From a virus (lineage: Duplodnaviria > Heunggongvirae > Uroviricota > Caudoviricetes): 28,518 nucleotides of DNA. Below, in pieces: positions 3,001-6,000 of this stretch. The position numbers are program-made. The first letter of the stretch is position 1. Every line of letters begins with the position of its first letter. Location: the IMG/VR virus record IMGVR_UViG_2529293076_000021. One strand, written 5' to 3'.

Positions 3001-6000
3001 CAACACTTTTGTGGCAAAGCATGGTGCCGGGTGCCTCCCGGTGAATTCAGTATCAGCACCTGAATCCGCGATTATCCCATATACCTGGTTGCTGATCGCC
3101 CCTCCGCACAGGGGGATTCACCATGCAGAAGTGTTTTTAATAAACAGCAAACAAAAAAATCAAGCATTATGCAGGCTGTTTCTTTTTATCACCGGCCACA
3201 GCAATACCACAATGCCGCAGACCAGCACCCCATCCGCCAGCACCGACATGATTCTGCTGGTGAAATCCACCATCACCACCAGAAACAGCAGGAGTGCAGC
3301 CACAGCCAGGCGCAGTTTTACCGTCACAGGTGATTCTCCAGACGAAGACCCAGAACACCGGCAATCTCTTCCAGCACCTTGCGCTCTTCCGGCTCAATTT
3401 CGCCGTCTGCCTCCGCAATGGCCACCGCCACATCCAGCACATCTTCCGCTTCACGCGTATCGTGTTTCACATCCTCAATCTCACGTAACGCCGCACGACG
3501 ACCAGTTTTAAAGTTCGTATCCAGCTGACCGATAATGGTTGCGCTAATCGCATTAATTTCTGACGTAAACGCGGACAGCGCAGGCTGATTACGCAGTACC
3601 TGTTCGATCTTCGCTTTCTCGGATGCCTCACATTCACCATCTGCACAGGCCACCAGGTATGCGGCGTTAATCACCACCTGTGCCAGATCGCGTTTTTCAA
3701 ACTTTTTAATTTCCGTTGCCGCTCTGCGGGCTTTTTTTACCAAAAATACCAAACATCGTGACGTTCCTTTGGGTGGGTGAGCCAACGCCCGGGAGCGATC
3801 TGCCCACAGAGAAAGTCACACTGACCACTCCGTAAGCTCACCCCCGAAAGGCTCTGTGGTTGGTATGCGCCGGGCGTGGTGCGGATACAAAAAAGGCCCG
3901 CAAAAGCGAGCCGGGAAAATAAGTGTGGCGCGTTGTACTGGAGTCGAACCAGTGACCGATTGCTTAGAAGGCAATTGCTCTGTCCGGCTGAGCTAACAAC
4001 GCAGAATACCGATAATGGACCGCCATCGGAGACTCGAACCCCGCGAAACCAGCTTCGAAGGCTGGCGTCTGCTATTCCTGATAAGCTAATGGCGGTTTGT
4101 GATGGTGGCCCTTGCTGGATTTGAACCAGCGACCTGGCGATTATGAGTCGCTCGCTCTCACCACTGAGCTAAAGGGCCGAGCCAAAAAATAATAATCAGA
4201 TGAAAATCAATAATCAAGCCCTTGCCTGGATACATATCTGTCTGGCGGGAAGCCATAATAGCGGTGAAATACAGAAATAAAGTAGGACCGGCTTGAATAA
4301 CCACATTTTTCTGCTACAGCCTGTCCATATCCATACCGGGAACATAACATATTTACAGCAACACGCATCCGCTCTTCCAGCAACAAGCGACTGAACATGC
4401 CCCCTTCATTTTTCAGTTTTGTCTTTAACAAACTCTCACTCATATGCAACTGTAGAGCAATCGCACCAAGCGTCCAGCTTGCTGATATATCTGTCTGAAT
4501 TATCGCCCTGACTTTGGCACTTATGCTGGATAAACATCCACTTAAAAACAATGACATCCGTTCATCTGTTTCAAACAGAGACAGGCAGGCCATCATAAGA
4601 AACATATCCGTGACCTCTCCGGAAAATCCCTGGCTGGTAATTAAAGCCGCAGCCAACGCAGGATTGTTGGGTTCCAGCAACAGGTAAAGCGGAATGTCAG
4701 TCAGACGAGTCCTCGTCAGCTTATGCTGACTTTCCAGATATTGACTTACGACGGATTCGCTTATATCGACAATTTTAACTTTGCCATAATGCATAAGGAA
4801 AAGCTCCCTGATGCATTTGGTGGCCAGAACGACTGAGCCTGGCTTAAGTGACAACGTATCCTTTTCAAGAAAAATATTAATTGGGGAGCAAACCATGATA
4901 ACTGAACAGACAACAGCCATTATAATTTTACTTTCATTAGCAATTGGTTAGCTCAATTATAGCCCCAAAAGGTAAATTATCATCAACACATAAGCAAAGG
5001 ACTGACAGGTGCCGCCCCCCCCACCAGCCGCCCATTTACCACAAATAAAAAGCCTTCAGGACTGAATGCGTCTGTAACAACCGCACTGATAGTCTGCCAG
5101 ACCCGCCATAACCAGCTGGGTCAGTATTAACTGGCAGCGTTCGCGTGAAAGGTAAGTATTCTGCGCAATCTCCCCGACTGTCGCCGGTTCGGTAACGCTT
5201 AATTCATTAAACACCACTCTGGCGGTTTCTGTCATATCCTGCTGTTTTAGCATGTCTTTTTCCCTTTTCCGGTTAACGTGACATACCAATAACTCTTGTC
5301 GAAAAAGCCAGCAAGTTGAAAGACCGGTATTAGCAACCACCAGCGCGTTTAACGCCCCGTGCCGTTTTTCAGTCATAAAAAAACCCGCAAAAAGCGGGCT
5401 CTTTCAAATGTCCATGTCTGCTATTCGCCTCGCGGTACAGCTTTGCGAAGCTTACCGGAATTGAAGCAGTTTTTACGTCAAAAAGCAATAACTTTTTTCT
5501 CTATACCAAAAGCCATAACCATTGGTTTGTACAAAATAAATTCTGCCACCTTTAGCCAATGCTCAATGCGTCTTTCACAGGTTCTTAAACTCCATTCCGG
5601 ATGTGCATCATTCAGCAATTCAGCCATTTTGCGCTTAGTCATCCCCCGCCCCACATAACGCTGACTCAGAACATTGAGCAGCCCGGGATAACCTGCCAGT
5701 ACTTCACCAATAACCCTATCGATTATTAACGCCTCTGAATCGGTACAATGTGCCAGCCAGCTTTTTTGATTGCCGTTGATCATATCCCGCAAAAAAGCCT
5801 CAAGTTCAGGTTTGTCCAGACCCGCTTTTTTCATCCTCCGGAGCGCCTCGTTAATTGCCGTTTTTGTCAGCTTTTTAGAGGTCAGTAATTGGTTGAACAT
5901 ATTTCCCGTCTTACCGTCGCCAATATACGACCAACGCCCCCACATACGCAGTTTCCCCTGGATCCAGACACTTTCCAGCGTTTTCAGGCGTAAATGCTCA

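Follow-up and report, generated by a model that had tools for sequence, protein, structure and literature searches.

The question raised by this locus is whether a gene that annotation presents as intact is in fact broken. In the 28,518-nucleotide (nt) sequence IMGVR_UViG_2529293076_000021 (hereafter the window; all coordinates are those of this whole stretch, in which tciA, tciB, the tRNA genes and their neighbours all lie on the minus strand), a gene for a TerB-like protein, tciA, is followed by a gene for a small membrane protein, tciB, and a run of seven adenines (A7) stands between the best-placed start codon of tciA and its TerB-encoding body. We consider it highly probable that the A7 form of tciA is a heritable loss-of-function or strongly hypomorphic allele, that is, an ordinary inherited frameshift hidden by annotation; most likely, it is a decaying gene that annotation shows as intact. 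The gene pair itself is already known, and in the window it carries a common frameshift allele.

The start of tciA and its A7 run

The elements of the tciA-tciB pair that enter into the argument are as follows.

3765-3769, minus strand: Shine-Dalgarno sequence AAGGA, with an 8-nt spacer to the ATG; its context, ccacccaaaggaacgtcacgATG, is kept in in-frame alleles
3754-3756, minus strand: ATG of the ancestral tciA start, no longer in frame with the TerB body
3750-3752, minus strand: in-frame TTG, 12 nt from the Shine-Dalgarno sequence and overlapping the ATG (ATGTTTG)
3732-3738, minus strand: A7 homopolymer, one A more than the conserved GGT-A6-GC
3706-3756, minus strand: remnant open reading frame (ORF) of 16 codons, MFGIFGKKSPQSGNGN, made by the frameshift, with its stop TAA at 3708-3706
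3324-3752, minus strand: tciA body (TerB domain), in frame +1 relative to the ATG at 3756, with its stop TGA at 3326-3324
3324-3327, minus strand: GTGA, in which the stop of tciA overlaps the start of tciB (GTG at 3327-3325)
3160-3327, minus strand: tciB, encoding a DUF3927 membrane protein of 55 amino acids (aa), with its own GGAG at 3336-3339, 8 nt upstream of the GTG

Removal of one A in silico yields MFGIFGKKARRAATEIKKFEKRDL..., in frame with the TerB ORF, as an initial annotation of this DNA had foreseen when it proposed that the loss of one A would fuse the two frames. To pass from the ATG to the TerB body, a +1 (or -2) ribosomal shift is needed, or else an mRNA shortened by one A. The eight codons counted earlier before the run are obtained only if the two lysine codons are included; six codons precede the run itself.

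The 143-144-aa homologues all start MFG-x-F-(G/K)-K-K. This MFG.F.KK start is seen in Escherichia coli, Salmonella, Klebsiella, Serratia, Pantoea, Enterobacter, P1, Pseudomonas and Paracoccus, and also in Erwinia and Salmonella jumbo phages, among homologues that are 39-97% identical. At the DNA level, the 5' end reads GGT-AAAAAA-GC in other genera, while in-frame E. coli genes show either GGT-A6-GCC or TTC-AAAAAG-AAAACC (the AAAAAGAAAA type, KKKT), with the same Shine-Dalgarno sequence and ATG. Homologues uniformly in frame with seven As, which would have spoken for an undisturbed gene, were not encountered: the others carry A6 or AAAAAGAAAA, and A7 is limited to one E. coli allele type among the alleles and species compared. 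Since the homologues start MFG.F.KK from an ATG with A6, the ATG at 3756 is to be regarded as the ancestral start and A7 as a derived +1 insertion.

A second, divergent tciA family of 141 aa (MFGIFKKKTRKAITEVKKMENRDAVE...) is represented by about 45 IMG/VR copies. Its first 11 residues are the same and its Shine-Dalgarno/ATG context is almost the same, so that the N-terminal motif appears to be conserved far beyond the close E. coli alleles; in an informal comparison, the opening residues of this family also resemble those of TciA from P1 and Klebsiella phages.

The extra A (A6 to A7) moves the TerB body out of frame with the conserved ATG and Shine-Dalgarno sequence, and ribosomes initiating at the ATG at 3756 would make a 16-residue peptide and then stop. 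Given Shine-Dalgarno spacing and start-codon strength, an ATG at 8 nt is expected to win almost all initiations over a TTG at 12 nt. At most a trickle of TerB protein would then arise, from the poorly placed TTG at 3752 or from rare slippage, and this product would be devoid of the invariant N-terminal MFG..KK motif. The A7 allele is thus probably expressed barely or not at all as TerB protein.

Alternatively, tciA could be undamaged and have its start at the in-frame TTG (3752), one of the options listed in the initial annotation, giving a functional 142-aa TciA (MVFLVKKARR...). Indeed, PGAP calls this start in O157:H7 without a pseudogene flag, the product retains the full Pfam TerB region behind a short hydrophobic-then-basic N-terminus, the TerB body of the window carries no further lesion, and the A7 allele is very common. 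However, the TTG lies 12 nt from AAGGA, while an overlapping and perfect ATG sits 8 nt away; the invariant G3 and the MFG.F motif, which are kept down to 39% identity, are lost; and no homologue outside the A7 allele starts in this way. A functional TTG start is, therefore, unlikely.

The run could also be a recoding site, at which a +1 ribosomal slip or slippage of RNA polymerase (RNAP) gives regulated, low-level TciA. Within A7, the lysine tRNA can re-pair perfectly one base downstream, the loss of one A restores MFGIFGKKARR... exactly, and slippage is known to provide a partial rescue of indels in A/T runs in E. coli (PMC1088944). Furthermore, Thermus dnaX (A9), Shigella mxiE (T9), Citrobacter tssM1 (A11) and insertion sequence elements (A8-9) have a homopolymer at the junction of overlapping frames, as here, and in such slippage-rescued genes a one-base change of run length in the mRNA restores the full protein, as would a change from A7 to A6. 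Unlike in those genes, the run of the window is seven long, unconserved and devoid of flanking signals, and its allele gains inactivating mutations, with second-site nonsense mutations accumulating. With A6 or AAAAAGAAAA, the frame is kept in other alleles, in the 141-aa family and in other species. The shift site holds neither a stop nor a rare codon, and the RNA flanking the A run folds no better than shuffled sequence (z=0.14). To bypass indels, E. coli RNAP is reported to require at least 7 T 'and even more' A (PMC6260861), and the functional slippage cases consulted use 8-11 A (PMC1088944, PMC4256274); A7 is shorter than these runs and falls below the useful slippage length for E. coli RNAP. 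The slippery site entertained in the initial annotation hence seems very improbable.

Other lesions occur at the 5' end of tciA. Four IMG/VR copies have a G deletion at codon 3 (ATGTTTG-TATT) on an A6 background. In P0032, a TTG-rescued product (MESSKRKPAERLRKLKK...) runs out of frame for approximately 17 codons before rejoining the TciA sequence; reasoning from the protein only, the cause would be one A too many in the AAAAAG run approximately 50 nt further on. Indels seem to arise readily in the first 60 nt of tciA, which are A/T-rich.

Prevalence and probable decay of the A7 allele

The 80-nt A7 context is present at 99% identity or more in 549 of 5,426 complete E. coli genomes, and its 79-nt A6 version in three; the 100% matches listed for the A7 context include O157:H7, O111:H8 and a poultry isolate. 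With queries of 79-80 nt, identity bands distinguish exact A7 and exact A6 only within this haplotype, as A6 alleles with other single-nucleotide polymorphisms fall in the A7 band; pattern-based retrieval and scripts were hence used in addition. The exact 142-aa TTG-start product occurs on 993 contigs, as compared to four for the exact A6 product. In IMG/VR, A7 was retrieved on 48 contigs and GGT-A6 on 54 by means of 18-19-nt 5' patterns, and the AAAAAGAAAA type is present on at least 120.

These numbers settle one half of the initial suspicion of a 'sequencing/indel artefact': it is an indel, but an inherited one. Homopolymers are error-prone in some sequencing chemistries; the same A7 is nevertheless found in 549 independently assembled complete genomes, in the 48 IMG/VR contigs and in the 993 contigs of the protein collection, which makes a sequencing or assembly error of the window extremely unlikely.

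A phase-variable contingency tract, with tciA ON at A6 and OFF at A7, is equally hard to credit. Both lengths do occur on an otherwise identical haplotype, and the family has other 5' indel alleles (the codon-3 G deletion and P0032, MESSKRKPAERLRKLKK...). Against this, the A7:A6 ratio of approximately 549:3 genomes and 993:4 contigs is that of a fixed rather than a switching state, and seven bases are short for a contingency tract. The sole O157 genome with A6, an 86-24 derivative, possibly carries a homopolymer error: at the same locus it differs from A7 genomes only by indels, and its A6 may be either a reversion or a sequencing error, the two not being distinguishable. Sequencing artefact, programmed recoding and phase variation were accordingly rejected, on the grounds of prevalence, non-conservation and the fixed A7:A6 ratio.

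How a broken allele may have become so common is suggested by its setting. Genomes with tciA have a median of five copies (approximately 4,200 copies in E. coli overall), of which only some are of the GGT type, so that the loss of one copy is probably neutral. A7 sits on several downstream haplotypes that in-frame alleles also have, and tciB is intact in almost all copies of every allele class. The A7 allele would be carried along by a late-region module that is freely exchanged by recombination between lambdoid prophages.

Signs of decay are seen beyond the run itself. When one A is removed in silico, 30 of the 45 evaluable A7 copies in the pattern-based IMG/VR sample have a GAG-to-TAG change at the invariant E46 (TAG46), while the same census of in-frame E. 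coli-type copies revealed this change in one A6 copy and two copies of the AAAAAGAAAA type (KKKT). TAG46, which is very frequent among E. coli prophage copies and mostly accompanies A7, is also present in two complete genomes with A6 (L330 and L331), and the fragment that follows it constitutes a protein cluster of 462 members (P0083). The copy of the window has the frameshift only, its codon 46 being GAG (3620-3618). The variants private to A7 comprise five nonsynonymous changes (K17R, V35E, I70M, D117E and R125C) and a single synonymous one, as compared to 32 nonsynonymous and 105 synonymous variants private to in-frame haplotypes (Fisher p=0.0045); D117E falls on an Asp that is invariant in the family. 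A nonsense codon in two thirds of the A7 copies and a mostly nonsynonymous set of private substitutions likewise argue against a functional start at the TTG.

Several considerations weigh against the view that A7 tciA has lost its function. The contrast in nonsynonymous and synonymous variants rests on six private sites, and its significance is lost with a narrower in-frame reference set. TAG46 is probably one inherited event, so that sequences were counted rather than events, and, given its occurrence on rare A6 copies, either TAG46 or A7 may have come first. The TerB body of the window is undamaged, and the TTG product (MVFLVKK...) keeps both a hydrophobic-then-basic N-terminus and the whole Pfam domain. 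Furthermore, a low-level product of the TerB frame may be made via the TTG or by +1 slippage, and the very high frequency of the null allele could reflect selection rather than hitch-hiking.

Such selection could favor a 'turned-down' tciA, or the loss of TciA with TciB kept could be adaptive; we regard either as improbable, if somewhat less so than recoding. Were the turned-down reading true, a few per cent of TciA would be supplied from the TTG at 3752 or by +1 slippage and TciB from its own Shine-Dalgarno sequence, and the TciA:TciB ratio would be altered in E. coli strains with many lambdoid prophages. Phage 434, in which tciB occurs without tciA, provides a parallel for an adaptive tciB-only state.

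The frameshift of A7 tciA is hidden by its annotation. On A7 copies in O157:H7 genomes, PGAP places a 429-bp coding sequence (window 3752-3324) with a TTG start, named 'TerB family protein' (WP_001303509.1, 142 aa) and bearing no pseudogene flag; on A6 copies it calls a 432-bp coding sequence from the ATG, and it flags A6 copies with TAG46 as pseudogenes. Other gene callers take a downstream GTG start on A7 copies, giving 116 aa (P0046). Pipelines therefore disagree on the A7 allele, which appears as TTG-142 (PGAP), as GTG-116 (other callers) or as fragments elsewhere. The entry WP_001303509.1 ('tellurite resistance TerB family protein'), which is seen on about a thousand contigs, is most appropriately regarded as tciA with a frameshift.

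The tciA-tciB pair and its surroundings

By sequence similarity, the pair is a homologue of tciA/tciB of phage P1, an already named module. The TciA frame matches Pfam TerB (PF05099) over residues 31-138 with 53 bits (cut-off 24.4), the solved TerB structure 2JXU over residues 15-137 (phmmer E=2.9e-7) and phrog_632 ('tellurite resistance') end to end (230 bits, 143/143 positions). TciB matches Pfam DUF3927 (PF13064) with 62.3 bits (cut-off 25) and phrog_1470 ('TciB-like') at 4e-30; together with direct reading of the sequence, this confirms the GTGA-coupled 55-aa membrane ORF that had been described behind the TerB ORF. TciB has two hydrophobic stretches (about residues 7-21 and 29-47) with basic residues at both ends, and R6, D21, F22, S28 and D32 are invariant among its homologues. 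In TciA, the first 25 residues are basic and the remainder acidic. An alignment of 19 TciA sequences reaching down to 39% identity (including P1, Pseudomonas, Paracoccus and Brucella) shows G3 and K7 to be invariant, as are D23, E46, D117, G118, E124, L128 and L135; as regards the acidic D-G-(E) motifs, D39 and G40 are nearly invariant, and E46, D117, G118 and E124 are present in the TerB frame of the window.

The AlphaFold2 model of an intact homologue, P0001 (pLDDT 88.5), shows a bundle of seven helices, the N-terminal one being long. In a Foldseek search of the PDB its top match was 2H5N (PG1108, a small helical protein; probability 1.0, TM 0.53-0.61, but E=0.03); 2JXU was not among the top PDB matches, and no E-value was significant. 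A PADLOC scan returned only PDC-S48 for TciA (13.8 bits, E=0.006) and nothing for TciB, and NCBIfam gave only weak, sub-threshold matches of the pair to DjlA and YmfL. No terC, terD, terE or terZ gene lies beside the pair, whose neighbours are the tRNA genes, an AraC-type helix-turn-helix (HTH) gene and a SASA esterase gene, besides the DUF3927 gene itself.

Using tblastn, both genes were found adjacent to each other in P1, P7, D6, Klebsiella temperate phages, N4-like Salmonella and E. coli phages, and JLK-2012, while tciA was found in Erwinia and Salmonella jumbo phages at 65-76% identity. The stop/start overlap with the DUF3927 gene (ATGA or GTGA) is kept in Pantoea, Franconibacter, Pectobacterium, Serratia, Oceanisphaera and a Bilophila metagenome-assembled genome, as well as in P1 and JLK-2012, and prophages of the Enterobacter/Klebsiella type likewise have the pair between Q and the lysis genes. 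The intact pair is hence a widespread and tightly coupled cargo, found in the stx slot and in temperate, N4-like and jumbo phages.

Phage 434 (OL657226, L332) has tciB without tciA. In this phage, a gene for a 248-aa putative membrane protein precedes tciB and one for a 62-aa membrane protein follows it, upstream of a SASA esterase gene. Retention of TciB is, therefore, possible in the absence of a TerB partner.

The surroundings of the pair in the window comprise the following features.

4207-4920, minus strand: AraC-type HTH regulator gene (237 aa), between the Q-region gene and the tRNA genes
3926-4178, minus strand: phage tRNA cluster Ile2(CAT)-Arg(TCG)-Arg(TCT), upstream of tciA
4016-4095, minus strand: the middle tRNA gene, Arg(TCG), of 80 nt, with an Rfam score of 35.8 bits as compared to 68-72 for the neighbouring tRNAs
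3895-3912, minus strand: terminator-like hairpin and T-run between tRNA-Arg and tciA (consensus scan only)
2983-3155, minus strand: small RNA (sRNA) STnc100 (Rfam RF02076), full-length match of 104.7 bits against a gathering score of 47
2940-2958, minus strand: terminator-like hairpin and T-run 3' of tciB and STnc100, before nanS-p (consensus scan only)
975-2846, minus strand: nanS-p-like SASA esterase gene (623 aa)

Read on the minus strand, the window shows the late region of a lambdoid prophage: a DUF968 gene, RusA, a DUF1133/Q-region gene and the AraC-type HTH gene are followed by the three tRNA genes, tciA-tciB, the SASA/nanS-p esterase gene and the holin gene. Judged on gene order and similarity, the locus is a lambdoid-prophage copy of tciA-tciB, carried as putative late-operon cargo between Q/tRNAs and the nanS-p/lysis genes. 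When aligned with the Stx1a phage LC567819, the window shows 98.6% identity from position 3140 through yjhS/nanS-p; this position is approximately 95 nt past the stx1B stop in LC567819 and approximately 20 nt past the tciB stop in the window. The pair thus occupies the slot where Stx1 phages carry stx1AB. The placement of a TerB-like and a small membrane gene in the stx slot, as initially proposed, is borne out by this alignment, with the tRNA genes and nanS-p as flanks.

The tciA-tciB coding sequence of the window equals that of O157:H7 strain 4276. Among complete E. coli RefSeq genomes, the whole 831-nt region has no 100% match; the window departs from the closest O157:H7 genomes at five sites, all of which cluster at 3880-3913, in and around the hairpin after tRNA-Arg. 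The AraC-type regulator corresponds to the 'helix-turn-helix domain-containing protein' WP_000301797.1 in O157:H7 and is a further late-region cargo gene. The tRNA-Arg(TCG) of the window has three extra D-arm bases relative to the copy in O157 locus L002, and in O157 locus L001 the corresponding position is degenerate, with no tRNA annotated; the copy of the window may be a decaying tRNA. The tRNA genes adjoin tciAB in unrelated backbones, namely P1 (Asn, Thr ... tciABC, Ile2), JLK-2012 (Asn, Thr, Gly, tciAB) and the window; tRNA genes and tciAB may form a single cassette that moves as a unit.

The STnc100 match begins 5 nt past the tciB stop, upstream of nanS-p. In EDL933, 11 copies of STnc100 are present, most of them with RNA-seq reads and one confirmed by Northern analysis (PMC5331693). 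A connection of STnc100 with the PasD sRNAs of the esterase-holin region is made in a 2026 preprint, which also names TerB as a conserved neighbour of PasA/PasC.

As to the working of the intact module, TciA is best explained as a cytoplasmic protein of predicted TerB fold and TciB as a small, putatively two-helix protein of the inner membrane, translationally coupled to tciA. No sigma-70-like promoter was seen between the upstream hairpin and tciA in a consensus scan, which a weak promoter could escape. In P1, the C1-operated ban promoters (P1ban/P2ban) precede tciABC, which shares its strand with ban, and the pair is also found in strictly lytic N4-like phages, with tciA in jumbo phages. The flanking hairpins, the lack of a sigma-70-like match in the scan, the ban placement in P1 and the lytic phages together point to lytic growth, rather than the lysogenic state, as the time of expression. 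In the ter cluster, TerB is reported to partner the integral-membrane protein TerC (PMC11003894). By analogy with this pair, we tentatively suggest, as a possibility rather than a probability, that the intact module forms a membrane-tethered TerB/partner complex in lytic growth which acts on envelope or ion stress, or on exclusion. TciA would be held at the inner membrane by TciB, or would itself regulate TciB there, the conserved basic/hydrophobic N-terminus of TciA being a candidate contact, and the output would be an altered envelope or ion homeostasis, or exclusion. The function of intact tciAB is, however, a modest question and not one raised by this window in particular.

Comparison with known systems

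In P1, as in the window, a TerB gene is followed by an overlapping DUF3927 gene for a two-helix membrane protein, and tRNA genes adjoin the pair. TciA of P1 and of the window are 40% identical over 143 aa, and the TciB proteins 58% over the second helix. The two loci differ in that the P1 pair belongs to the ban operon and the pair of the window to the lambdoid late operon between Q/tRNAs and nanS-p, and in that tciA is in frame in P1 but frameshifted in the window. No ORF similar to tciC of the P1/P7 type (MGFWDFADKH...) follows tciB in the window, where the STnc100 match is found instead. The P1 genes tciA, tciB and tciC were non-essential in a CRISPR interference screen (PMC10695390); the name tci was given by TerB homology only, and the function is stated to be unknown (PMC9603915, PMC6799933, PMC4319500).

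Closer relatives are the intact lambdoid copies. JLK-2012, an O55:H7 phage (L159) with annotated tciA (432 bp) and tciB, has the order Q - tRNAs - tciA - tciB - yjhS - S - R. This phage and the E. coli prophages with A6 or KKKT alleles share the slot and the Shine-Dalgarno/ATG context with the window, at 96-98% protein identity, but read through from the ATG with A6 or TTC AAA AAG AAA ACC, whereas the window has A7.

TerB of the ter cluster (2JXU) has the Pfam TerB domain and the acidic DG-E motifs in common with TciA. Its reported partner is the integral-membrane protein TerC, while that of TciA would be a 55-aa DUF3927 protein, and in contrast to terZABCDEF, the pair of the window has no terZ, terA, terC, terD, terE or terF gene nearby. 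Finally, stxAB and other morons use the same insertion slot downstream of Q and the phage tRNAs, and tciAB presumably shares Q-dependent late transcription with the stx cargo; the cargo of stxAB is a toxin, whereas that of tciAB is a membrane-associated two-gene module.

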